A stretch of DNA of 39,764 nt from a virus: the UHGV virus genome UHGV-0145637; one strand, 5' to 3'. The notes beneath the pieces are model-generated. The model made no database searches. It saw only the letters and a list, made by a program, of their open reading frames with translations, and had not been told where the DNA came from. The position numbers and the translations under genes were made by a program. This document shows, piece by piece, positions 3,401 to 39,764 of this stretch. Numbering within the stretch: position 1 is the first letter of the stretch; each line of letters begins with the position of its first letter.

Positions 3401-4333
3401 ATGACCGATATTAACGATGTAATCAAGACCATTGATGAACTTATTGATGGCGGCGTACTGACGCAGTATGCCATCGCCAGAGAGGCGGGAATTTCCGACG
3501 GCACATTATCGGCTTTCCGTAAGGGAAAATATAAAGGCGATAACGCTGCTGTGGCTGCTTCCCTGCGCTCCTGGTATGAGAACTGGAATAAACAAAGCGC
3601 ACTGCCGGAACCGCCGCAGTTTGTGGAAACTCAGACAGTCCAGGAGCTGCGCGCACTGTTTCAGGCGGTTCGCCTGATGGGCTGTATTAACGTTATTGTG
3701 GGCGTACCGGGTGTGGGTAAAACGGCCACTGCCCGTAATTACTGCCAGGAGCAACCAAACACCTGGATGATCACCCTGTCACCCGCGCACTCCAGCGTCA
3801 CGGAGTGTCTGCTGGAGCTGGCCGATGCGCTGGGGATTGATTACACCCGCGCGAACAAAGGGGCATTATCCCGCGCCATCCGCCGTCGCCTGATGGGAAC
3901 GCGTGGACTGGTGATTGTGGATGAGGCGGATCATCTTGGTATTGACGGTCTGGAGCAACTCCGGGCAATTCAGGACGCCACGGGGATCGGGATGGTGCTT
4001 ATTGGTAACCCGCGCGGATTGTTTAAAGGTGGACGCCGCGCCTTTGATGATTTATCGCGCCTGTTCAGCCGTCTTGCCCGTACAAAACAACTTCGCAAGG
4101 CCAAAAAGGCGGATGTGCTGGCCATTGCCATGGCGTGGGGGATCAGTGGTGAGGCCGAGCTGGCCGTCATGCAGGCTATCGCTGAAAAGCCGGGAGCGTT
4201 ACGCGTTCTGACACATACGCTTAACCAGGCGTGGCTCACCGCCAGCGGTGAAGGCGCGGCGCTGACAGAAAAACATATTAATGCGGCCTTTAAAGAGGTT
4301 TATACCAACCCTGAATTACTCTCACAGGTGTGA
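3401..4333 (+). CDS. B: Transposition ATPase / target DNA activator B
   Basis: Walker A GVPGVGKT; N-terminal HTH; overall resemblance to MuB as recalled; GAGGTG RBS 7 nt before the ATG at 3401. Confidence 0.85.
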   Translation: MTDINDVIKTIDELIDGGVLTQYAIAREAGISDGTLSAFRKGKYKGDNAAVAASLRSWYENWNKQSALPEPPQFVETQTVQELRALFQAVRLMGCINVIVGVPGVGKTATARNYCQEQPNTWMITLSPAHSSVTECLLELADALGIDYTRANKGALSRAIRRRLMGTRGLVIVDEADHLGIDGLEQLRAIQDATGIGMVLIGNPRGLFKGGRRAFDDLSRLFSRLARTKQLRKAKKADVLAIAMAWGISGEAELAVMQAIAEKPGALRVLTHTLNQAWLTASGEGAALTEKHINAAFKEVYTNPELLSQV

Positions 4334-11439: not shown

Positions 11440-11641
11440 ATGGCTGGCTGACTGTCTGGTCCCTCCTGTGCCGCAGCCGTTCACATTTGGCGCATCGGTC
11501 ACTTACAACCTGCAACTGCTGGCGGTGATTAAAAACTGCAACGTGGACAAGGCCAGCATCCGCCGTCTGGAGGCACAGCGACAGCATGAATTTACTGATA
11601 TGGCCGGAACGACTGCTGTTCCGGCAGGAAAGACGAAGTAA
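11270..11641 (+). CDS. Putative o-spanin lipoprotein, overlapping the i-spanin in the +1 frame
   Basis: Lipobox-like LTGC after hydrophobic PLFLCLMMW; proline-rich mature part (VPVKPVPIP, PPVPQP). Start uncertain. Confidence 0.45.
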   Translation: MKNSRTCSTARNSRALSAGRWQRCLRPLFLCLMMWLTGCGGPSVKYVPVKPVPIPAEWLADCLVPPVPQPFTFGASVTYNLQLLAVIKNCNVDKASIRRLEAQRQHEFTDMAGTTAVPAGKTK

Positions 11642-11651
11642 GGAAAAAGGT

Positions 11652-11879
11652 ATGGATGATTCAGATTGTGCTCAGGCAGTCGTGGAGCGGGCAACAGAAC
11701 GCGCCCTTTGTGACCGGCTGACACGTAAGCGCCGGGTGGCGGAGACACCGGGCAGGCGTGCATGCGCGGACTGCGGGGGTGACATTCCGGCCGCCCGTCT
11801 GGTTGCCGTGCCGGATGCCATCCGTTGTGTGAACTGCCAGAACATCATGGAGGCCGGTCATGTGGGTCAGTATCGTTAA
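11652..11879 (+). CDS. TraR/DksA-type C4 zinc-finger protein
   Basis: 75 aa with CADCGG ... CVNCQ cysteine pairs; start at MDDSD with AAGGAAAAAGG RBS. Confidence 0.6.
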   Translation: MDDSDCAQAVVERATERALCDRLTRKRRVAETPGRRACADCGGDIPAARLVAVPDAIRCVNCQNIMEAGHVGQYR

Positions 11880-12168
11880 AGATTATGTCGTGCCGATCCT
11901 GTCGGCCACGGCCACGGCCGGGGGGATCTTTATGGCGCTGATGCGCAAAACCTTTGTCCCCCGCGAGGCCTTTGAAAAACTCTCCGACCGGGTTGAGCGG
12001 GTGGAGAGCCGGATTTCCGGCCTGCCCACGCAGCAGGAGGTGAACAGACTCAATATCGAAATCACCACCCTGCGCGGTGAGCTTAAGGCCACCAATGCCA
12101 CCCTGAAATCCGTCTCCCACCAGAACGAACTGCTGCTGGAGCAGGCTGTAAGGAAAAAAACACAATGA
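11860..12168 (+). CDS. Membrane-anchored coiled-coil protein (possible lysis/morphogenesis accessory)
   Basis: N-terminal hydrophobic segment VVPILSATATAGGIFMALM then helical region. Confidence 0.4.
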   Translation: MWVSIVKDYVVPILSATATAGGIFMALMRKTFVPREAFEKLSDRVERVESRISGLPTQQEVNRLNIEITTLRGELKATNATLKSVSHQNELLLEQAVRKKTQ

Positions 12169-12455
12169 GTGATTTCATTACTGAAGATCAGCGTCTTGTC
12201 ATTCTGCGGTCGCTGGCGGATTACAACGGCGAACTGGGCGAATCCGTGCTTCAGGACTGCCTGGATGATTACGGCCACCGTGTGTCCCGCGACACCGTTC
12301 ACACCCACATTGCCTGGCTTGCCGAGCAGGGACTGGTGCGTAAGCGCACGCTTGTTAACGGTTATTTCATCGCTGAACTGACCGGCCGGGGTCAGGATGT
12401 GGCGGAAGGTCGTGCCACTGTTCCGGGTGTGAAGAAACCACGCGCAAGGGGGTAA
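12165..12455 (+). CDS. Hypothetical protein, possibly DNA-binding
   Basis: 96-aa ORF, start overlaps upstream stop. Confidence 0.4.
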   Translation: MSDFITEDQRLVILRSLADYNGELGESVLQDCLDDYGHRVSRDTVHTHIAWLAEQGLVRKRTLVNGYFIAELTGRGQDVAEGRATVPGVKKPRARG

Positions 12456-12457
12456 CG

Positions 12458-13039
12458 ATGGATAAGCCAACGCGTGGCCGTGTACGCAAGGTGGATTTGC
12501 TCCCCGACAGCATCCGTAAGCCGCTGCTGGAAATGCTGCGTGAAAAACGCCTGACGCAGGTCCAGATCCGCGAGGAAATCAACCGCCTGATCCGTGAGGC
12601 GGGTCTGCCGGAAGAGCAGCAGCTTTCACCGGCGGCCATCAGCCGGGAGGCCTCCCGTAATGAGCTGATTGCCCGTAACCTGCGTGATTTACGCGAGCAG
12701 ACAAAAGCCATGATGGCCGAACTGGGGGACAAGCCGACCGGTGAAACCACGGCACTGATTCTGGAAATGTCCCGCGCCCTGATGTACCGCCGTCTGCGTG
12801 CTGCCACCGAATCCCTGAACAGCGACAGCGATGTGGATATGCGCCTTATTAAGGACATCCTCCTGTCGGCACAGCGTGCGGAAAGTGCCGCCGAGCGCAG
12901 CATTAAGCGTGAAAAAGAAATCCGGGCCGCATTTGCTGAAGAGATGGCGAACGCCGTCACCGACGAGTTGCGCGGCGTGGATGGCATGAGCGAGCAGATA
13001 GAATTCCGTATCAGGCAGATGCTGCTTGGTAAGGCGTAG
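12458..13039 (+). CDS. Putative terminase small subunit / DNA-binding packaging protein (Mu gp27-like)
   Basis: 193 aa, basic N-terminus, lies just upstream of terminase large subunit. Confidence 0.5.
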   Translation: MDKPTRGRVRKVDLLPDSIRKPLLEMLREKRLTQVQIREEINRLIREAGLPEEQQLSPAAISREASRNELIARNLRDLREQTKAMMAELGDKPTGETTALILEMSRALMYRRLRAATESLNSDSDVDMRLIKDILLSAQRAESAAERSIKREKEIRAAFAEEMANAVTDELRGVDGMSEQIEFRIRQMLLGKA

Positions 13040-13049
13040 GAGGTGAATC

Positions 13050-13298
13050 GTGGTAACAGATAACCGCTCACTGATGAGTAGTGCTCATCAGAAGGCATTC
13101 AGTCTTGCAACACAGTTACCTCCTGAAACCATAAAAGCGTGTCGTGAGTTGACTGAACTCAGCATTGCCGGGGAAATATCCCTGGAACAACTGCATTCGC
13201 TGCTGGCAGAGGCTGTCACTGATGAGTTGAGTGGCGTGGACGTGATGACTGAAGAGCTTGAGTTCCGAATCAAAAGCATTCTGACAGGTAAAGCCTGA
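13050..13298 (+). CDS. Small protein whose C-terminal tail duplicates that of the upstream gp27-like protein
   Basis: C-terminus VTDELSGVDVMTEELEFRIKSILTGKA versus VTDELRGVDGMSEQIEFRIRQMLLGKA. Confidence 0.45.
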   Translation: MVTDNRSLMSSAHQKAFSLATQLPPETIKACRELTELSIAGEISLEQLHSLLAEAVTDELSGVDVMTEELEFRIKSILTGKA

Positions 13299-14962
13299 TG
13301 AACAAAGCCAAAGAAACGTCTCCTTCACTGATACAAATGACGCCTCCCCGCAAAATTGATCTGTCCGGTGAAAAAGCCCTGCTGGGCGTGGATGTGCCGG
13401 ACAGACTTGATTTGCCCGGTGATATGCCGGTGTTTCTGGATTATCAGGCCCGCTGGTTTGAGGATGAAAGTCAGGTCTGCATTGCGGAAAAATCCCGCCG
13501 CACCGGTCTTACCTGGGCGGAAGCCGGGCGTAACGTCATTACTGCTGCAAAACCGAAGCGTCGTGGTGGCCGCAATGTGTTTTATGTGGGATCAAAGCAG
13601 GAGATGGCGCTGGAATATATTTCTGCCTGCGCGCTGTTCTCCCGTGCCTTTAACCAGCTGGCAGATGCTGATGTGTATGAGCAGACATTCTGGGATCGGG
13701 ATAAAAAAGAAGAAATTTTGACCTACATGATCCGCTTTCCGAACAGTGGATTCAAAATTCAGGCATTGTCTTCCCGTCCGTCAAACCTGCGCGGCCTTCA
13801 GGGGGATGTGGTGATTGATGAAGCCGCGTTCCACGAGTCGCTGGATGAACTTCTCAAGGCGGCAATGGCGCTCACTATGTGGGGCGCGCGCGTGCGTATT
13901 ATCTCCACGCATAACGGCGTCGATAATCTGTTTAATCAGTACATTCAGGAAGCCCGCGAGGGGCGCAAGGATTACAGCGTCCACCGCATAACCCTGGATG
14001 ATGCCATTGCGGACGGGCTGTACCGTCGTATCTGTTACGTCACCGATCAGGAATGGTCACCGGAAAGCGAGCAGAAATGGCGTGATGATCTCTACAAAAA
14101 TGCCCCGACCCGTGAGGATGCCGACGAGGAATACGGCTGTATCCCGAAAAAATCCGGCGGTGCCTATATCCCCCACGCGCTTATTGAAATGGCGATGATC
14201 CGCGACATCCCGATTCTGACGTTTGAAGCCCCGGACAACTTCATCAGCCGTGCCGCATGGCTGCGTGAATCGGAAGTTTTAACCTGGTGTGAAGAACATT
14301 TAAAACCGCTTTTAGAGAAATTAAATCCCCGTTCCCGCTTCAGCTTCGGGGAAGACTTTGCCCGCACCGGTGACCTGTCCTGCTTTGTGCTGCTGGAAAT
14401 CACCGAATCCCTGGCAAAGCGCGAGGTGTTTCGCGTGGAGCTGCGCAACCTGCCGTATGCCCAGCAGGAACAGGTGATGATGTACATCCTGACCCGCGTT
14501 CCGGCGCTGGTCGGTGCGGCGTTCGACGCCACCGGTAACGGCGGCTATCTGGCAGAGGCCGCACTGCTGGCCTTTGGCCCGGACATCATCGACTGCGTGA
14601 TGTTGTCGCCGAAGTGGTACGGCGAGTGGATGCCAAAACTGAAAGCCGAGTTTGAAGATCAGAATATCCTCGTCGCCCGCCATCAGACCACGCTTGATGA
14701 TTTGCGCCATGTGAAGGTAGTGAATGGTATCCCGCAAATCGACAAGGGGCGCACGAAGGACCAGAACGCAACGGCTGCGAACGCCCGCCGCCATGGTGAT
14801 TTTGCCGTGGCGCTCTGTATGGCAAACCGGGCGTCATACATGGAGGGCTTCATCCTGGATGAATCAGCCTGTCAGGCGCTACCGGAGCGGTCGCGGGCAA
14901 TGGAGGGCGGTTATCGTGATGACGATGAGGCATATCATGAATTTGATCGGGGGGGCTGGTAG
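13298..14962 (+). CDS. Terminase large subunit (Mu gp28-like)
   Basis: 554 aa, position and size; start overlaps upstream stop. Confidence 0.8.
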   Translation: MNKAKETSPSLIQMTPPRKIDLSGEKALLGVDVPDRLDLPGDMPVFLDYQARWFEDESQVCIAEKSRRTGLTWAEAGRNVITAAKPKRRGGRNVFYVGSKQEMALEYISACALFSRAFNQLADADVYEQTFWDRDKKEEILTYMIRFPNSGFKIQALSSRPSNLRGLQGDVVIDEAAFHESLDELLKAAMALTMWGARVRIISTHNGVDNLFNQYIQEAREGRKDYSVHRITLDDAIADGLYRRICYVTDQEWSPESEQKWRDDLYKNAPTREDADEEYGCIPKKSGGAYIPHALIEMAMIRDIPILTFEAPDNFISRAAWLRESEVLTWCEEHLKPLLEKLNPRSRFSFGEDFARTGDLSCFVLLEITESLAKREVFRVELRNLPYAQQEQVMMYILTRVPALVGAAFDATGNGGYLAEAALLAFGPDIIDCVMLSPKWYGEWMPKLKAEFEDQNILVARHQTTLDDLRHVKVVNGIPQIDKGRTKDQNATAANARRHGDFAVALCMANRASYMEGFILDESACQALPERSRAMEGGYRDDDEAYHEFDRGGW

Positions 14963-16551
14963 TGGGACGCATCATTGATACTGACGGAAAACCTTTCTCC
15001 TTTGACCCGGAGATGCAGAGTGCCGCGCTGGATATTCCGCAGATTGCCAGCCGTTATATTGAACATCCGGCTTCGGGTATCACCCCGAACCGGGCGGCGC
15101 AGTGCCTTCGCGGGGCTGAACGTGGCGATCTGATTGCCCAGTCCGATCTGGCCGCTGATATTGAAGAAAAGGACACCCACCTTTTTGCGGAGCTGGGCAA
15201 GCGACGTCTTGCCATTCAGGGGGTGCCATGGAGTATTGAGCCGCCACCGAACGCCAGCGCGAATGAGAAAAAGGACGCGGAAATGCTCGACGAATATCTG
15301 CATTCCGCAGACTGGTTTGATGCCATGCTGTTTGACGCCACGGATGCCATCCTGAAGGGCTATTCCTGCATGGAAATTGAGCACGGGATGCTCGGTAAAA
15401 TGCACATCATCCGCGCCATCCGCTGGCGTGACAGCGGGCATTTCTGCCTTAACCCGGATGATTTGAGCGAACTGCGGCTGCGTGACGGCAGCCATTCCGG
15501 GGTGGCGTTTCAGCCCTTTGGCTGGATAGTGCATCAGTCGCGTTCACGCACCGGTTACGGTGGTGCAACCGGGCTTGTCCGGACGCTTATCTGGCCGTTC
15601 ATTTTCAAAAACTATTCCGTGCGCGATCTGGCGGAATTTCTGGAGGTGTACGGCCTGCCGATGAAGGTCGGGAAATACCCGTCCGGGGCAACACCGGAGC
15701 AGAAAAGTGCCCTGATGCGGGCGGTGATGGATATCGGGCGACGTACAGGCGGGATCATCCCGGCCGGGATGTCGCTGGAGTTTCAGGCGGCAGCGAACGG
15801 TCAGGCCGATCCGTTTGAAACCATGATTTCGTGGGGGGAGCGTTCCATCTCCAAAGCAATACTCGGCGGCACGCTGACCACGGAAGCCGGAGACAAAGGC
15901 GCGCGCTCACTGGGTGAGGTACATAACGAGGTGCGCCGGGAAATCAGGGATTCTGATTTACGACAGCTGGCTGCAACCCTGAACCGCGATCTGGTGTATC
16001 CGCTGTACGCCCTGAACACCACGCACACTATTGATATCCGCCGTCTGCCACGTATCTGCTTCCAGACAAAAGAACCAGGTGATATCACCAAAATCACCAG
16101 TGCGGTGATGCAGCTCAGTACGGGGATGGATATTTCTGATCCCTGGATACGTGAGCAGACCGGTATTCCGCAGCCCACGCCCGGTGAAGCCATATTCCGT
16201 GTCCGTCAGAGTGGCAATGAACCGGCTCAGACCGACAGGGAAACACCACCGGAAAAACAGGAAAAAACAGAGCAGACGGCGCTGTCAGCCAGACTGCCGG
16301 AAGCGAAAAGCACGCCGCGTGATGAACTGGATGATATGGGGGACGCGGTGCCTGCCCGCCGCTTACAGGAGGCCATCGACCCGGTACTGGAGCCGGTCAT
16401 TGATGCCATCAGAACGCGGGGGCTGGCGGATGCGCTGGCAGACCTGCCTGCCCTTTATCGTGAAATGGATGATTCCCGCCTGATGACGCTGCTCAGTGAT
16501 GCCATGTTTGCTGCGGAAATGAAGGGGATGCTGGATGACACAGGGGATTGA
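14962..16551 (+). CDS. Portal protein (Mu gp29-like)
   Basis: 529 aa immediately after terminase; GTG start overlapping the terminase stop. Confidence 0.8.
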   Translation: MGRIIDTDGKPFSFDPEMQSAALDIPQIASRYIEHPASGITPNRAAQCLRGAERGDLIAQSDLAADIEEKDTHLFAELGKRRLAIQGVPWSIEPPPNASANEKKDAEMLDEYLHSADWFDAMLFDATDAILKGYSCMEIEHGMLGKMHIIRAIRWRDSGHFCLNPDDLSELRLRDGSHSGVAFQPFGWIVHQSRSRTGYGGATGLVRTLIWPFIFKNYSVRDLAEFLEVYGLPMKVGKYPSGATPEQKSALMRAVMDIGRRTGGIIPAGMSLEFQAAANGQADPFETMISWGERSISKAILGGTLTTEAGDKGARSLGEVHNEVRREIRDSDLRQLAATLNRDLVYPLYALNTTHTIDIRRLPRICFQTKEPGDITKITSAVMQLSTGMDISDPWIREQTGIPQPTPGEAIFRVRQSGNEPAQTDRETPPEKQEKTEQTALSARLPEAKSTPRDELDDMGDAVPARRLQEAIDPVLEPVIDAIRTRGLADALADLPALYREMDDSRLMTLLSDAMFAAEMKGMLDDTGD

Positions 16552-17866
16552 TTTAGGTTATGCCGCCACGCTTCCCTCAAAAGAGGCGGTAGCATACTTC
16601 CGTGTCAAAGGGGCGCATATCAGCTGGAACTGGTTCGAAACAGCCGCGGATGTTCATGCCCGCTCATTCACGGCAGCAAAAGCGGCACGCCTGGATGTGG
16701 TGACCACGTTACAGGCCGAAGTGCAGCGGGCCATTGATGAGGGAATTTCACAGAAAGCATTTATCCGCACGCTGACGCCACGCCTGCAAAAGCTGGGATG
16801 GTGGGGAAAGCAGATTGTGGTGGACAGCGACGGTAACGCGGAAGAAGTGCAACTGGGCAGTCCCCGTCGTCTGGCGCTGATTTACAACGTGAACACCCGG
16901 GTGGCTTACAATGCCGGGCGTTACACGCAGATGATGAACAACACGGACACGCATCCGTTCTGGCAGTATGTGGCGGTCATGGACAGCCGTACCCGCCCGT
17001 CGCATTCCGCCCTTAACGGTCTGGTATTCCGCTATGACGATCCGTTCTGGAAAACACACTACCCACCTAATGGCTGGAACTGCCGCTGCCGTGTGCGGCC
17101 ATTGTCTCAGGCTCGTCTGGATGCAATGGGGTTATCCGTTTCATCCGGTGAGGATCATCTCTCCACCCGCAATGTTGAGGCTGGCGTGGATAAACAGACC
17201 GGAGAAGTCAGAGAAATGCCGGTGACCACATATTCAGATGGCACCAGAACCATGACACCGGATGTGGGCTGGTCATATAACCCCGGCTCGGCAGCGTTCG
17301 GCACAGACCAGGCGCTGATCCGCAAACTGATCGAGGTGAAAAGCCCGGCGTTACGGGAAATGGTGGTTCAGGAGATGAACAACAGCCCGGAGCGGCAGCT
17401 GGCGTTCCGCATCTGGGCAAAAAACATCATGCAGACCCGGCGAGGTGGTAACGATATCCGCACGCTGGGCTTTATGACTGAAAGCATTGCGCAGGCAGTG
17501 GAAAGCCGGACGGGAACGCCACCGGCCCGCCTGCTGGCGATGAGCGGTAAAAATGTGCTCCATGCAGACAGTGTGAAACATCAGAATGACGGCATCGCCC
17601 TGATGCCAGAGGACTTCGGGCGCTTACCGGCAATGCTGGCAAAGCCAAAAGCGGTGCTGTGGGACAAACGGCACAAAAATCTGATGTATATCGTGGAAAA
17701 TAAGGATGGCAGTGTGCAGATTGCCGTTAATGCACCGTACAGTCTGAAACGTCAGCCCGACAAACTGGATGTGATTGTGAATGCTTACCGGGTTATCAAT
17801 ATGGATAAGCTGAAATCGGATATCCGGGGCGGAATGCTTGAGGTGCTGGAAGGACAAATTGATTAA
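16535..17866 (+). CDS. Head morphogenesis protein (Mu F-like)
   Basis: 443 aa following portal, as in Mu. Confidence 0.7.
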   Translation: MTQGIDLGYAATLPSKEAVAYFRVKGAHISWNWFETAADVHARSFTAAKAARLDVVTTLQAEVQRAIDEGISQKAFIRTLTPRLQKLGWWGKQIVVDSDGNAEEVQLGSPRRLALIYNVNTRVAYNAGRYTQMMNNTDTHPFWQYVAVMDSRTRPSHSALNGLVFRYDDPFWKTHYPPNGWNCRCRVRPLSQARLDAMGLSVSSGEDHLSTRNVEAGVDKQTGEVREMPVTTYSDGTRTMTPDVGWSYNPGSAAFGTDQALIRKLIEVKSPALREMVVQEMNNSPERQLAFRIWAKNIMQTRRGGNDIRTLGFMTESIAQAVESRTGTPPARLLAMSGKNVLHADSVKHQNDGIALMPEDFGRLPAMLAKPKAVLWDKRHKNLMYIVENKDGSVQIAVNAPYSLKRQPDKLDVIVNAYRVINMDKLKSDIRGGMLEVLEGQID

Positions 17867-17987
17867 CGGTCAGTGGCGGGGGTCGAACCCGCATACATGA
17901 TCCACCCGGAGGCAGGCACCGACTTTACCAGTTAAGCGTACACTGACCGCCTGTTTATTTTATATTCATCCTTTATGCGGAGGCAAT

Positions 17988-32040: not shown

Positions 32041-32921
32041 TGTTTCATGTTGATAATAATTCCGGCGTGGCGAATATGCCTGCGCTGGCACCGGCGCAGA
32101 GTAATACCACCACCTGGTTTACCGAAGGTGACGGACAAAAAGGTATCAGCTGGATTGGTCAGGACTGGCTGAATATTCTCCAGGCCGAACTGCTGAATAT
32201 TCTGGCTGAAGCCAGTATTCAGCCGGATAAGGCGCAGTTAAACCAGCTTACGCTGTCCATTAAAGCCATTATCGCTGCGAATGCCTTTTCCCGGAAAAAT
32301 AACCTGAAAGAAATTGCTGATGCCGGTGCGGAGGCCCAGCGTCTGGCCCGTGGTTATCTTGGTCTGGGGACGCTTGCCACAAAAAACAGTCTTGGTCCCG
32401 CTGACGTTAATGCCCTGGCGAAGGATCAGAATCTCGCCGACCTGGAGAATAAGGGAACCGCCCGTAATAATCTGGATGTTTACAGCAAAAGCGAAGGTGA
32501 TAACCGTTACCTGCGCAGGGAGCAGAACGGCGCAGACATTCCGGATAAAGGGGCTTTTATCGATAACGTCGGTTTACGGGAAACGGTAAACAGGGCGGCG
32601 AATGCCCTGCCATCGGACGGCACCGCCGTTGCCGCGAACAGGCTGGCAAATGCCCACACAATTAATGGTGTTCCCTTTGACGGGACGCAGGATATCACTA
32701 TCTCATCAGGAACAGTAACCGCCATAAGACTGGGGTCGGTGACCGCACATATGCCCGGAACATGGGAAAGCTGGGATCTGAATCTGGGGGGCGGCAATGT
32801 TCTTACCGGAATTAAAGTACAGGATGTCGGTAAGAATACGGCAGATAACGTCGGCGGCGTGTATTACCGGCCGTTGCAGTATCTGTTAAATGGAGCATGG
32901 GTGACGGCTGCAAGTATATAA
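32040..32921 (+). CDS. Tail fibre protein (Mu S-like), C-terminus inside the invertible segment
   Basis: N-terminus [20 protein letters not shown]...WFTEG resembles Mu/P1 S as recalled; the crossover site lies inside the gene. Confidence 0.8.
32557..32700. repeat. Left inverted repeat of the invertible segment, with gix/hix-like 26-bp crossover site at 32557..32582
   Basis: Site TTATCGATAACG-TC-GGTTTACGGGAA; the following ~70 bp are near-identical to the reverse complement of 33815..33885, with weaker similarity to ~32700. Confidence 0.75.
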
Positions 32922-32930
32922 TGATATTCA

Positions 32931-32954
32931 GAAGGCCTTCCGGCCTTCTTTATT
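32931..32954 (+). terminator. Rho-independent terminator after the tail fibre gene
   Basis: 7-bp stem GAAGGCC / GGCCTTC, loop TTCC, followed by TTTATT; overlaps the stop of the convergent tfa gene. Confidence 0.6.
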
Positions 32955-33474
32955 ACTGTGGCTGCTCAGGCCATTTAATGGCGTTAAATTCAGCTTCTGT
33001 TTTAATGGCGGGTAGTTCCATTTTCTTCACCTGACTGATGTATGCCATCCATTGGGTAAGTGCTGCTCTGTCTTCATCGCTGATGGTGCCCAGTTGTAGC
33101 TCCGTTCTCCAGTCATTAATTTTTTCATATGCCTGATTAAGATATGACTGGCGCATTGCTTCCAGTTTTCTTGCGTAGTTAACCGGAATACGGGAGATTA
33201 TGCCATTATCAAACTTCCAGTTTCCTGAAATATCCGTGCCTTCAGGGAGTTCATCGACCTCAACCACAGAAAACCCCGCAGGATACAGCGCCGAGGCGTC
33301 CTGTGATATTGAGCAGATAACGCCGCTGTCAGGTGTTATGCAAAGTTTATATTTTTTGGTGAATAATGGCAGGGATTCGTAGAAATCCTTACCATCTTCA
33401 CTCTGGAAATACTGAACATTATTACCATATGGCATATTTTCAGGATAATAACGGGTTATATTTTTTAGTTCCAT
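32953..33474 (-). CDS. Tail fibre assembly chaperone (Tfa / U-like), inside the invertible segment
   Basis: 173 aa on the minus strand with AGGAGG RBS, directly downstream of the alternative fibre C-terminus; C-terminal ...AIKWPEQPQ resembles Tfa endings. Confidence 0.7.
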   Translation of the reverse strand: MELKNITRYYPENMPYGNNVQYFQSEDGKDFYESLPLFTKKYKLCITPDSGVICSISQDASALYPAGFSVVEVDELPEGTDISGNWKFDNGIISRIPVNYARKLEAMRQSYLNQAYEKINDWRTELQLGTISDEDRAALTQWMAYISQVKKMELPAIKTEAEFNAIKWPEQPQ

Positions 33475-33525
33475 AAAATCCTCCTGGAAATAAATCTGTT
33501 TTAAAATATATTATTTACTGACTAT

Positions 33526-33885
33526 TTATAACTGAGATACCGTAATCCATGTACCTCCGACTAATTTTTGCAGGGGTCTGAATGCTATAAAATCGTTTGA
33601 AGCATCAACTTTACTGTCAATCTGCAGGCCTGCCATAACATTACCGTACGCAGAGTAATATGCCCCACCGTACATTACCTGCCTGTTCTCTGCTCCCAGC
33701 CTGATATCCTGGATATATCGGGAATCCGCATCCTGCTGTGTTATACCAGAAGTGATGTTTATGTCCTGCGTCCCGTCAAAGGGAACCCCATTAATATTTC
33801 TTGGGGTGGCGAGTCTATTCGCGGCAACGGCGGTGCCGTCCGATGGCAGAGCATTCGCCGCCCTGTTTACCGTTTCCCGTAAACC
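33526..33885 (-). other. Alternative tail-fibre C-terminal cassette (S'v), start-codon-less
   Basis: Minus-strand frame is open for 119 codons from the crossover site ([17 protein letters not shown]... to ...GGTWITVSQL stop), in register with the fibre frame. Confidence 0.7.
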
Positions 33886-33899
33886 GAGGTTTTCAGGAA
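33760..33899. repeat. Right inverted repeat, with gix/hix-like crossover site at 33874..33899
   Basis: Reverse complement reads TTCCTGAAAACC-TC-GGTTTACGGGAA, sharing the half-site GGTTTACGGGAA and central TC with the left site. Confidence 0.75.
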
Positions 33900-33964
33900 A
33901 GCCAGGATTAACTCTGTTTTATTCCTCATGCGACAATTCCGGCTTTTTATAATAAGGAAATCGT

Positions 33965-34537
33965 ATGCTGATTGGGTATATCAGGGTGTCAACAAATGAC
34001 CAGAATACGGCGCTACAAAGAAATGCGCTGGAATGTGCAGGATGTGAGCTGTTTTTCGAAGACAGAATAAGCGGTAAGACAAGGGAGCGTCCCGGACTTA
34101 AACGCGCATTAAAGCGACTCCGGCCAGGGGATACCCTGCTGGTCTGGAAACTGGATCGCCTTGGACGCAGTATGCAGCACCTTGTCCTTTTAACAGAAGA
34201 ACTCCGGCAACGCGGCGTTAACTTCCGCAGCATTACGGACAATATTGATACATCCACTCCCATGGGACGTTTCTTTTTCCATATAATGGGCGCGCTGGCG
34301 GAAATGGAGCGGGAACTCATTATTGAACGTACACGCGCGGGTCTTGCTGCTGCCCGTGCTCAGGGGCGTCATGGCGGCAGACCTCAGAAACTGACAGAGA
34401 AAGAGCGGGAGCAAATCGCCCGTTTGCTGGCTAATGGCGAGTCCCGTAAACAAATCGCACTGATATTTGATATTGGCCTTTCCACCCTTTATCGTTATTT
34501 TCCTGCCTCACCAGCTCCGTCACCAAAAGTACCGTGA
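33965..34537 (+). CDS. gin: Serine recombinase DNA invertase (Gin/Hin/Cin/Pin family)
   Basis: MLIGYIRVSTNDQNTALQRNAL... with catalytic-serine motif and C-terminal HTH; near-colinear with Mu Gin as recalled. Confidence 0.9.
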   Translation: MLIGYIRVSTNDQNTALQRNALECAGCELFFEDRISGKTRERPGLKRALKRLRPGDTLLVWKLDRLGRSMQHLVLLTEELRQRGVNFRSITDNIDTSTPMGRFFFHIMGALAEMERELIIERTRAGLAAARAQGRHGGRPQKLTEKEREQIARLLANGESRKQIALIFDIGLSTLYRYFPASPAPSPKVP

Positions 34538-38944: not shown

Positions 38945-39036
38945 ATTTAGTATCAAATAAGTTGCGTATCGGCGTTTTTCAGCGGTATCAAATGAAATGC
39001 AAATCGGTATCAAAAAAATCGCCGCGCTATAATACA
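38945..39036. repeat. Right-end region with three GTATCAAA repeats (attR-like) and putative terminus ...TAATACA
   Basis: GTATCAAA at 38950, 38985 and 39007; reverse complement of the terminus begins TGTATTATAGCG. Confidence 0.5.
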
Positions 39037-39735
39037 TGCGCTTGCTTGCGCACTCCAGCGCCAGCTGTTTGATGTCGTAGTTCGGATCGCCTTTTTTATG
39101 GTTCAGACCATCGCGAATCGCAAACACCAGTTTCGGGAACACCGCAGTTTTACGGTTTTTACCGAGGCCTGCGATACGGTTACGCAGGATAGATTCCTGA
39201 ATCAGGCGCGACTCCCAGCTGGTGCCCAGACCAAAACCAAAGGTTACAAACGGCGTCTGACCGTTGGCGGTGTGCAGGGTGTTTACTTCGTACTCCAGCG
39301 ACTGGAAGGCATCGTAGCACTCTTTAATGGTACGAGAGTTAGCGTAGCCTTCGGCGTCCGGGATGTTCCACTCTTCTGCGGTCTTGCGATGTTTGTTGTA
39401 GCTGGCGGTAACAAACGGCGCCAGCACTTCATCGATACGGTTAATGGTGGTGCCGCCATAAATATGGCTGGCGACCTGAGCAATAATCTGCGCAGTTACC
39501 GCGGTTGCCGTAGAGATCGACTTCGGCGGTTCAATCTCGGCGTTCCCCATCTTAAAGCCCTGGGTCAGCATGCCTTTCAGGTCGATCAACATGCAGTTGA
39601 ACATCGGGAAGAACGGCGAGTAATCGAGATCGTGATAGTGAATATCGCCACGCTCATGTGCCTGCACCACGTCACGCGGCAGCAGGTGCTGACGTGCATA
39701 GTGTTTAGCCACGATCCCGGCCAGCAGGTCGCGCT
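39037..39735 (-). CDS. nrdD: Host anaerobic ribonucleoside-triphosphate reductase, 5'-partial and interrupted at the phage junction
   Basis: Minus-strand translation AKHYARQHLLPRDVVQAHERGDIHYHDLDYSPFFPMFNCMLIDLKG... resembles enterobacterial NrdD as recalled; the frame runs out of the contig and degenerates on entering phage DNA after ...ECASKRMY. Confidence 0.6.
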
Positions 39736-39764
39736 CTGTCTCTTATACACATCTGACGCTGCCG
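39736..39764. other. Nextera adapter read-through (library artefact)
   Basis: CTGTCTCTTATACACATCT (reverse complement of the Tn5 mosaic end) followed by GACGCTGCCG. Confidence 0.9.

Follow-up and report, generated by a model that had tools for sequence, protein, structure and literature searches.

A small open reading frame with a gp27-like tail at the gp27/terL junction of a Mu-like prophage of Escherichia coli

The virus genome UHGV-0145637, a stretch of 39,764 nucleotides (nt) hereinafter referred to as the window, represents a transposable, Mu-like prophage of Escherichia coli. Between its gp27-family small-terminase-like gene and its large terminase gene (terL), the window contains an intact open reading frame (ORF) of 82 codons on the + strand (13050-13298; GTG start, TGA stop; hereinafter the mini-gene), whose product ends in a tail homologous to the C-terminus of gp27. 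In the simplest reading of the sequences, the mini-gene is a chimera of an N-terminal module (hereinafter N-module; residues 1-55) and the displaced original 3' end of gp27, which would have supplied residues 52-82 together with the TGA and its overlap with terL. As for its role, the best-supported view, to which we give about an even chance, is that it is a recombination-born, dispensable chimeric ORF whose tail has been kept largely to couple the translation of terL. The mini-gene is a mosaic-junction ORF, which is a familiar phenomenon. The features of the junction, all on the + strand, are as follows.

12458..13039, +: gp27-family small-terminase-like gene (193 aa, TAG stop)
12944..13036, +: C-terminal tail of gp27, codons 163-193, MANAVTDELRGVDGMSEQIEFRIRQMLLGKA; the copy on the full-length protein
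13037..13049, +: gp27 TAG stop, overlapping Shine-Dalgarno (SD) sequence and 6-nt spacer before the mini-gene, from the sequence
13050..13298, +: mini-gene, 82 codons, phrog_30922 member, from the ORF list
13050..13214, +: N-module of the mini-gene, codons 1-55, three predicted helices; homologous tail-less small ORFs occur at the same site
13203..13295, +: gp27-like tail of the mini-protein, codons 52-82, LAEAVTDELSGVDVMTEELEFRIKSILTGKA; from BLASTP, read as the displaced original gp27 3' end
13296..13300, +: TGATG stop/start overlap of the mini-gene and terL, with the shared A at 13298, from the sequence
13298..14962, +: terL, large terminase, 554 aa, first ~17-25 codons hypervariable (PHROG 2, E=2e-43)
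about 12985-13348, +: hypervariable junction island, ~360 bp (last ~17 codons of gp27, mini-gene, first 17 codons of terL), from alignments and segment identities

Composition and origin of the mini-gene

A single significant segment was found when gp27 was compared with the mini-protein by BLASTP, in which gp27 residues 163-193 aligned without gaps to residues 52-82 of the mini-protein (20 of 31 residues identical, 65%; 26/31 similar; E=1e-12 for this single comparison). An earlier note on this DNA, made from the sequence alone, had put the similarity at ~27 residues and ~60%; the homology is significant, and its extent is to be corrected to the values given here. The 93-nt stretches coding for the two tails shared 67% DNA identity, in agreement with the divergence that the same note had pointed out. 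A motif of ~31 residues, AVTDEL.G.D.M.E.LE.RI..IL.GKA, was common to both tails. The UGA of the mini-gene and the AUG of terL overlapped as TGATG, with one base in common (13298), and not as ATGA; a stop/start overlap had also been described before.

Three architectures of the gp27/terL junction were distinguished. In architecture A, gp27 directly abuts terL. In architecture B, to which the window belongs, gp27 is followed by the N-module fused to the gp27-like tail, and then by terL. In architecture C, the N-module after gp27 has another C-terminus, and a spacer separates it from terL. The A-type locus used for comparison (L001) was a Mu-like insert in a Stx2c phage; its gp27 has 193 aa and ends in ...LLGKA, and the TGA of this gp27 shares a base with the terL ATG, which is the same TGATG junction as that between the mini-gene and terL in the window. 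In the C-type locus (L005), the gp27 3' end, the TAG and the sequence AGGAGGT were as in the window, and beyond this SD a 67-aa ORF, a spacer of ~120 nt and a terL with a different N-terminus were found. None of 5,426 complete E. coli genomes had the C-type architecture. In Mu, a 7-nt gap separates gp27 and gp28, and in a Vibrio Mu-like phage gp27 and terL overlap by the same junction as in L001.

Among 232 complete E. coli records matching a 1.6-kb region of the locus, the mini-gene was present in 25, and the remainder aligned in two pieces and were ~259 bp shorter. Counted by genome, 25 of 231 E. coli genomes with this prophage had the mini-gene. It was thus absent from ~207/232 records, in which gp27 meets terL at TGATG with no ORF between them, and it was also absent from Mu, D108 and SfMu. 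None of 53 gp27 loci from a scan of other species (one genome per bacterial species, including Citrobacter, Kluyvera, Aeromonas, Shewanella, Photorhabdus and Vibrio) carried a second copy of the tail. Absence from close relatives was a refuting condition named in the same note, and most of them do lack the mini-gene, which indicates that it is dispensable.

The identity of the window to the C-type (L005) and A-type (L001) loci was calculated by segment.

gp27 codons 1-160: 95% to C-type, 96% to A-type
gp27 tail: 96% to C-type, 80% to A-type
mini-gene codons 1-34: 79% to C-type, not present in A-type
mini-gene tail: no true counterpart in C-type, 77% to the A-type gp27 tail
terL codons 1-17: 67% to C-type, 73% to A-type
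terL from codon 18: 97-98% to C-type, 97% to A-type

The flanks of the junction island were thus 95-98% identical across architectures A, B and C. Within the island, the last ~17 codons of the window gp27 matched the C-type rather than the A-type locus, and the closest DNA relative of the mini-gene tail was the gp27 tail of A-type E. coli (77%, vs 67% to the window's own gp27 tail). The mini-gene tail also kept the A-type frame relation and the TGATG junction with terL. Because the A-type gp27 end was closer in DNA, frame and junction, the tail was read as the displaced gp27 3' end. On these comparisons the tail similarity is a real homology and is old relative to its surroundings, since the DNA identity of the tails was 67-77%, vs 95-98% for the flanking DNA. 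The old duplication proposed earlier was accordingly right as to age, but the mini-gene is not a simple duplication of the tail; its tail would be a positional descendant of the gp27 3' end, fused to an unrelated N-module.

Comparison among the loci shows that the ancestral state is a gp27 ending in ...LLGKA, with its UGA sharing a base with the terL AUG or lying a few bases before it. About 11% of the prophages in this E. coli lineage have an extra block of ~259 bp, which lies within the tail-coding end of gp27 and supplies a replacement 3' end and TAG for gp27, a strong SD, and the first ~55 codons of a small ORF with three predicted helices. The new frame would run into the old gp27 3' end, its last ~31 codons, stop codon and UGAUG junction representing the displaced terminus. 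Architecture B may thereby combine a C-like left part (gp27 3' end, SD and N-module) with an A-like right part (tail and the 5' end of terL), the two meeting in frame at about codon 52-55. Two alleles from European Nucleotide Archive contigs (P0002 and P0003) carried in-frame deletions of 2-3 codons exactly at the joint of N-module and tail (LLAEAEELSG and LLVTDELSG), which suggests that the joint is a tolerant linker. An origin of the A-type tail as a deletion chimera of two B-type tails was considered and was not needed; the A-type tail fits the family consensus, and it is the window gp27 tail that deviates.

The gp27 protein was assigned to Pfam PF11985 (Phage_Mu_Gp27; E=3e-33, 116 bits) and to PHROG 426 'terminase small subunit' (E=9e-55). 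Across the family, from E. coli to Vibrio, no part of the protein was better conserved than its tail: the A-type E. coli and Vibrio tails were 84% identical, and the whole window gp27 was 42% identical to the Vibrio protein. The tail of the mini-protein was 55-71% identical to any gp27 tail. The copy in the window kept 13/17 positions that were invariant in the gp27 alignment, with V167 and the terminal A193 varying in some alleles. At positions invariant in an alignment of eight gp27 sequences it carried the replacements R172->S, G176->V and S178->T, and the equivalent of G173 was polymorphic (G/S) among alleles. The derived tail residues S61, V65 and T67 were fixed in all B-type alleles.

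Based on these comparisons, the mini-protein is a carrier of a gp27 fragment and not a member of the gp27 family. Like the PF11985/DUF3486 proteins, it has the tail motif, a site immediately before terL and a one-base stop/start overlap; unlike them, it is without the N-terminal helix-turn-helix and the long central helices, and three invariant tail residues are altered. No Pfam family was detected for it at E<=0.1 by hmmscan, where the gathering score of PF11985 is 28 bits over ~173 positions. In hhalign, the mini-protein family and the gp27 family aligned over 8 tail columns with a probability of 0.3, without the N-terminal helix-turn-helix and long central helices. An internally deleted second gp27, with its helix-turn-helix fused to the tail, had been suspected from the resemblance of LPPETIK...ISLEQL to LLPDSIR...LTQVQI; it was ruled out, as only the 8 tail columns aligned in hhalign and no second segment was found by BLASTP. 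A fusion of gp27 and the mini-protein by frameshift or read-through was also rejected, because an in-frame TGA lies one codon (3 nt) before the GTG and the gp27 frame meets a TAA seven codons past its TAG.

N-module relatives, predicted structure and selection

The mini-protein family was already catalogued, as phrog_30922 (PHROGs v4), and is uncharacterised; the mini-protein matched it over its full length (positions 1-82/82, E=1.1e-55). In a word-indexed protein search of 5.8 billion clusters, 11 mini-protein clusters were found, and every source name shown was E. coli. An exhaustive search of 1.8 billion representatives gave six matches, consisting of three of the E. coli clusters again, two chance matches to repeat proteins, and one informative match, the 67-aa protein P0132. 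This protein was 58% identical to residues 1-55 of the mini-protein (E=2e-7 among 1.8 billion proteins; E=1.7e-35 in a local hidden Markov model (HMM) search), and diverged from it past residue ~55 (...AHAQSSRRGKT). In contrast to the full-length match of the mini-protein, the tail-less P0132 matched phrog_30922 at positions 2-55 only. The ORF of P0132 lies between gp27 and terL on six contigs (L005-L010). Neither the Pfam nor the NCBIfam scans gave a family for the mini-protein, and its N-terminal half had no tblastn match in 50,697 phage records.

By HMM search, two weak relatives of the N-module were found at the gp27/terL junction, on the strand of these genes, one in Citrobacter braakii (E=0.011; L013) and the other in Apirhabdus (E=0.063; L017). 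The Citrobacter braakii ORF (orf65, 3591-3787) encodes 65 aa and its stop overlaps the terL ATG (ATGA), and the Apirhabdus ORF (orf57, ~3581-3754) encodes 57 aa and lies directly between gp27 and terL. These were the top two non-trivial matches among 3,085 translated segments and had the common motif LLSDAH..AF; their homology to the N-module is weak, resting partly on the identical position. In addition, an unrelated 118-aa ORF with a hydrophobic stretch occupied the gp27/terL junction of a Shewanella prophage (L027, 3623-3979). As different small ORFs occupy the same site, the junction is an insertion hot spot.

In the AlphaFold2 (AF2) model of the mini-protein (mean predicted local distance difference test, pLDDT, 72), helices were predicted at residues 4-22, 25-39 and 45-60, with a pLDDT of 78-88 in the middle part, followed by a low-confidence linker (59-65) and a terminal helix (68-79). 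The gp27 model was poor (pLDDT 58), with a long helix to residue 171, then a linker (172-178) and a last helix (179-189). The predicted ending of the mini-protein, a linker and then a terminal helix, thus mirrors that of gp27 at low confidence. No match of the mini-protein model was obtained with Foldseek against the PDB and BFVD at E<=0.001, no solved relative of gp27 was found in the PDB, and a literature search on the function of gp27/DUF3486 returned nothing relevant. To our knowledge, the small terminase of Mu-like phages has never been characterised biochemically.

Selection was assessed on nine B-type loci (window, L002-L004, L066-L070) comprising eight distinct alleles, with a synonymous divergence of up to ~0.28. 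Substitutions were counted along a minimum spanning tree, the ratio of nonsynonymous to synonymous changes per site (pN/pS) was calculated, and p values refer to an excess of synonymous changes. All nine loci had an intact 82-codon ORF without insertions or deletions (indels), the SD and the TGATG junction; the start codon was ATG in the eight other loci and GTG in the window. The results were as follows.

Mini-gene, whole: 31 synonymous and 52 nonsynonymous substitutions, pN/pS 0.53, p=0.005
Mini-gene, N-module: pN/pS 0.59, p=0.06
Mini-gene, tail: pN/pS 0.48, p=0.058
gp27: 100 synonymous and 11 nonsynonymous substitutions, pN/pS 0.03
terL, whole: pN/pS 0.08
terL, codons 1-25: 2 synonymous and 12 nonsynonymous substitutions, pN/pS ~1.8, not significant
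terL, codons 26-554: pN/pS 0.05

The mini-gene is under purifying selection, which is far weaker than that on gp27 and terL. The earlier statement that it is kept under selection stands in this limited form (9/9 loci intact, with a significant synonymous excess), with the qualification that the constraint is weak relative to the neighbours and that residues invariant in gp27 are altered.

Coupling to terL and competing explanations

The SD of the mini-gene (AGGAGGT, 13038-13044) lies 6 nt before its start and overlaps the gp27 TAG, and the C-type L005 and the eight remaining B-type loci were identical or near-identical to the window in this region. The calculated energy of the duplex with the anti-SD sequence was -11.5 kcal/mol for the mini-gene and -11.8 kcal/mol for gp27. 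For terL it was -3.8 kcal/mol in the B-type and -3.7 kcal/mol in the A-type, at every A- and B-type locus, and for terL genes that are not overlapped (Mu and the C-type) it was -6.3 and -6.4 kcal/mol. A search of 11500-14000 gave no promoter-like site; the four terminator-like sites detected there were no more than expected by chance, and none lay between gp27 and the terL start. No RNA family was detected in the window with Rfam.

A weak terL SD, an overlap and no intervening promoter or terminator form the pattern expected if terL is translationally coupled, and we infer coupling through the mini-ORF from these sequence features. In this mechanism terL, almost without an SD of its own, would be initiated by ribosomes terminating at the overlapping stop, and the mini-ORF would now serve as the translational-coupling leader of terL, which would require its frame to be open to the last codon. 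Such coupling in cis would account for retention of the tail frame without a protein function. Coupled overlapping genes with UGAUG or AUGA junctions are known from phage late operons, and the mini-gene/terL pair resembles them in its one-base overlap, its weak downstream SD and the lack of a promoter or terminator between the genes. Unlike in usual coupled pairs, the upstream partner would have been swapped, from gp27 to a chimeric ORF, with the original coupling sequence kept. If coupling is true, the locus illustrates how a newcomer can enter a phage genome between two coupled essential genes and leave both working; the coupling sequence would be duplicated and the inserted ORF would read through the old copy, which would explain why fragments of neighbouring genes occur in some accessory ORFs.

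Several observations weigh against a role in coupling by itself. The pN/pS of the mini-gene was below 1 (p=0.005) and about equal in the N-module (0.59) and the tail (0.48); a role purely in keeping the frame open predicts a value of ~1, and some protein-level function is thereby implied. The fixed residues S61, V65 and T67 could reflect a new conserved specificity rather than decay. The terL start region was unstructured, and less structured than shuffled sequences (z=+1.2); the start is therefore not sequestered, and some independent initiation is possible. The events may also have run in either direction: recombination between C and A may have given B, or B may be a primary insertion from which the tail was later lost.

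Binding to TerL, the large terminase protein, would be a different reason for keeping the tail. In lambda and P22, the C-terminus of the small terminase (TerS) binds the N-terminus of TerL (PMC9611059), so for these phages the earlier note was right in its premise of a contact between this C-terminus and the large subunit. The gp27 tail is likewise terminal, helical and highly conserved, as are the TerL-binding tails of lambda gpNu1 and P22 gp3; it has no sequence relation to them, so TerL binding by the gp27 tail is an analogy. In the window, unlike in lambda and P22, such a tail is also carried by a free-standing protein of 82 aa that has neither a DNA-binding nor an oligomerisation domain. 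The gp27-like terminal helix of the mini-protein might accordingly dock on TerL and act as a decoy, that is, as a competitor, chaperone or adaptor tuning how gp27 and TerL assemble into the holoenzyme or which substrate is packaged, which we regard as a serious but rather doubtful possibility. It would agree with the conservation of the tail from E. coli to Vibrio, with the predicted linker and terminal helix mirroring gp27, with a strong SD that predicts an abundant mini-protein, and with a tail pN/pS of 0.48 and derived residues fixed in all alleles. Small TerL-binding regulators also exist elsewhere, such as Gpi of the phage-inducible chromosomal island-like element (PLE), which binds and inhibits the TerL of ICP1 (PMC11417361). 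Rpp of phage-inducible chromosomal islands (PICI) binds the TerS of the helper phage (PMC6739421). As small terminase-binding proteins, Gpi and Rpp offer a functional analogy to a decoy; they are, however, encoded by satellites against a helper phage and are not derived from a TerS tail, whereas the mini-gene lies in the phage's own late operon and has no homology to them. Against a decoy, ~90% of the closest prophages and all other Mu-like lineages in the survey lack the gene, so that packaging does not need it; an abundant competitor of the phage's own TerS would be costly; and tail-less family members persist at the same site, so that the N-module needs no tail. Moreover, the replacement of R172, G176 and S178 and the polymorphic G173 argue against an unaltered TerL-docking function. 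Given the weak constraint and the alteration of gp27-invariant tail residues, docking of the mini-protein on TerL is probably weakened. If the mini-protein were a decoy, a small phage-encoded protein with a small-terminase docking peptide would be a tool to map the gp27-TerL interface.

By the same analogy with lambda and P22, the hypervariable island coincides with the two contact elements of the terminase, the TerS C-terminus and the TerL N-terminus. A bolder proposal, which we consider improbable, is that a free-standing mimic of the phage's own tail docks on TerL, with the ~360-bp island as a fast-evolving interface cassette and the mini-protein as a self-encoded regulator of packaging initiation. 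The island would then be shaped by conflict with terminase-targeting satellites or defence systems, or by the timing of holoenzyme assembly. If true, this would be a class of regulator not described for Mu-like phages.

It is also unlikely, in our view, that the N-module is the functional part, a 'moron'-like accessory product of the late operon acting, for instance, in host takeover or in counter-defence, with the tail as an incidental appendage. Tail-less homologs of 57-67 aa found between gp27 and terL in Citrobacter braakii, Apirhabdus and the E. coli-like contigs of the C-type, the unrelated Shewanella ORF at this hot spot, and the higher AF2 confidence of the N-module point in that direction. 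On the other hand, constraint on the N-module (pN/pS 0.59, p=0.06) does not exceed that on the tail, the searches of families, folds and motifs yielded no hint of a function, and the Citrobacter and Apirhabdus homologies are weak. Within the coupling view as well, a separate accessory function of the N-module is possible. Very unlikely is a neutral recombination scar, translated or not without consequence and too young for decay. Its confinement to one sublineage of one species, an evolution much faster than that of its neighbours and the existence of some disrupted or truncated alleles (P0008-P0011; in the P0011 contig, the mini-gene 5' end runs into a baseplate gene, by deletion or misassembly) would fit such a scar; however, all nine loci are intact and free of indels despite their synonymous divergence, the synonymous excess is significant, and the SD and the stop/start junction are kept in every allele.

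Neighbouring genes and other observations along the prophage

The mini-gene lies in a dense run of late genes (11860-16551, +), in the order DUF2730 protein, 96-aa winged-helix protein, gp27, 82-codon mini-gene, terL and portal gene. The terL protein was 75% identical to Mu gp28. It had no Pfam or NCBIfam match at E<=0.1 and was recognised by PHROG 2 alone; its RefSeq label in E. coli genomes is 'hypothetical protein', and in NC_000929 Mu gp28 carries the label 'putative portal protein', apparently a mis-annotation. The 96-aa winged-helix protein (12165-12455, +) is a homolog of Mu gp26 and belongs to the NCBIfam VpaChn25_0724 family, with weak ArsR/HTH Pfam matches. The start of its gene overlaps the stop of the DUF2730 gene, its stop lies 2 nt before gp27, and the protein is kept in Mu and Vibrio relatives; it could be a DNA-recognition partner of gp27.

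A prophage copy in strain JE86-ST05 was 99.4% identical to the window, with indels. In the RefSeq version of this copy (L071; NZ_AP022815.1, 684481-724244), more than 10 genes, including terL, are flagged 'frameshifted'; as terL is intact in the window, these frameshifts are probably assembly errors and not real decay. The window flanks (1-54 and 39032-39764) differed from those of the JE86-ST05 copy (NZ_AP022815.1), which is inserted in citF. Three places in JE86-ST05 matched the mini-gene region, and four in strain 48 matched the wider region. The differing flanks and multiple matching places would fit a transposable prophage, of the type with the mini-gene, that has been active recently.

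A 'tRNA-OTHER' is annotated by RefSeq in JE86-ST05 at the equivalent of about 17866-17945, between the head-morphogenesis and virion-morphogenesis genes; nothing was found at this position of the window with ARAGORN and Rfam. The tail-fibre region (32695-34471) was not collinear with the JE86-ST05 copy: 32960-33427 matched at only 87%, and 33740-33903 matched in the orientation opposite to the rest of the prophage. This pattern in the alignment suggests an invertible or swapped host-range segment like the G region of Mu.

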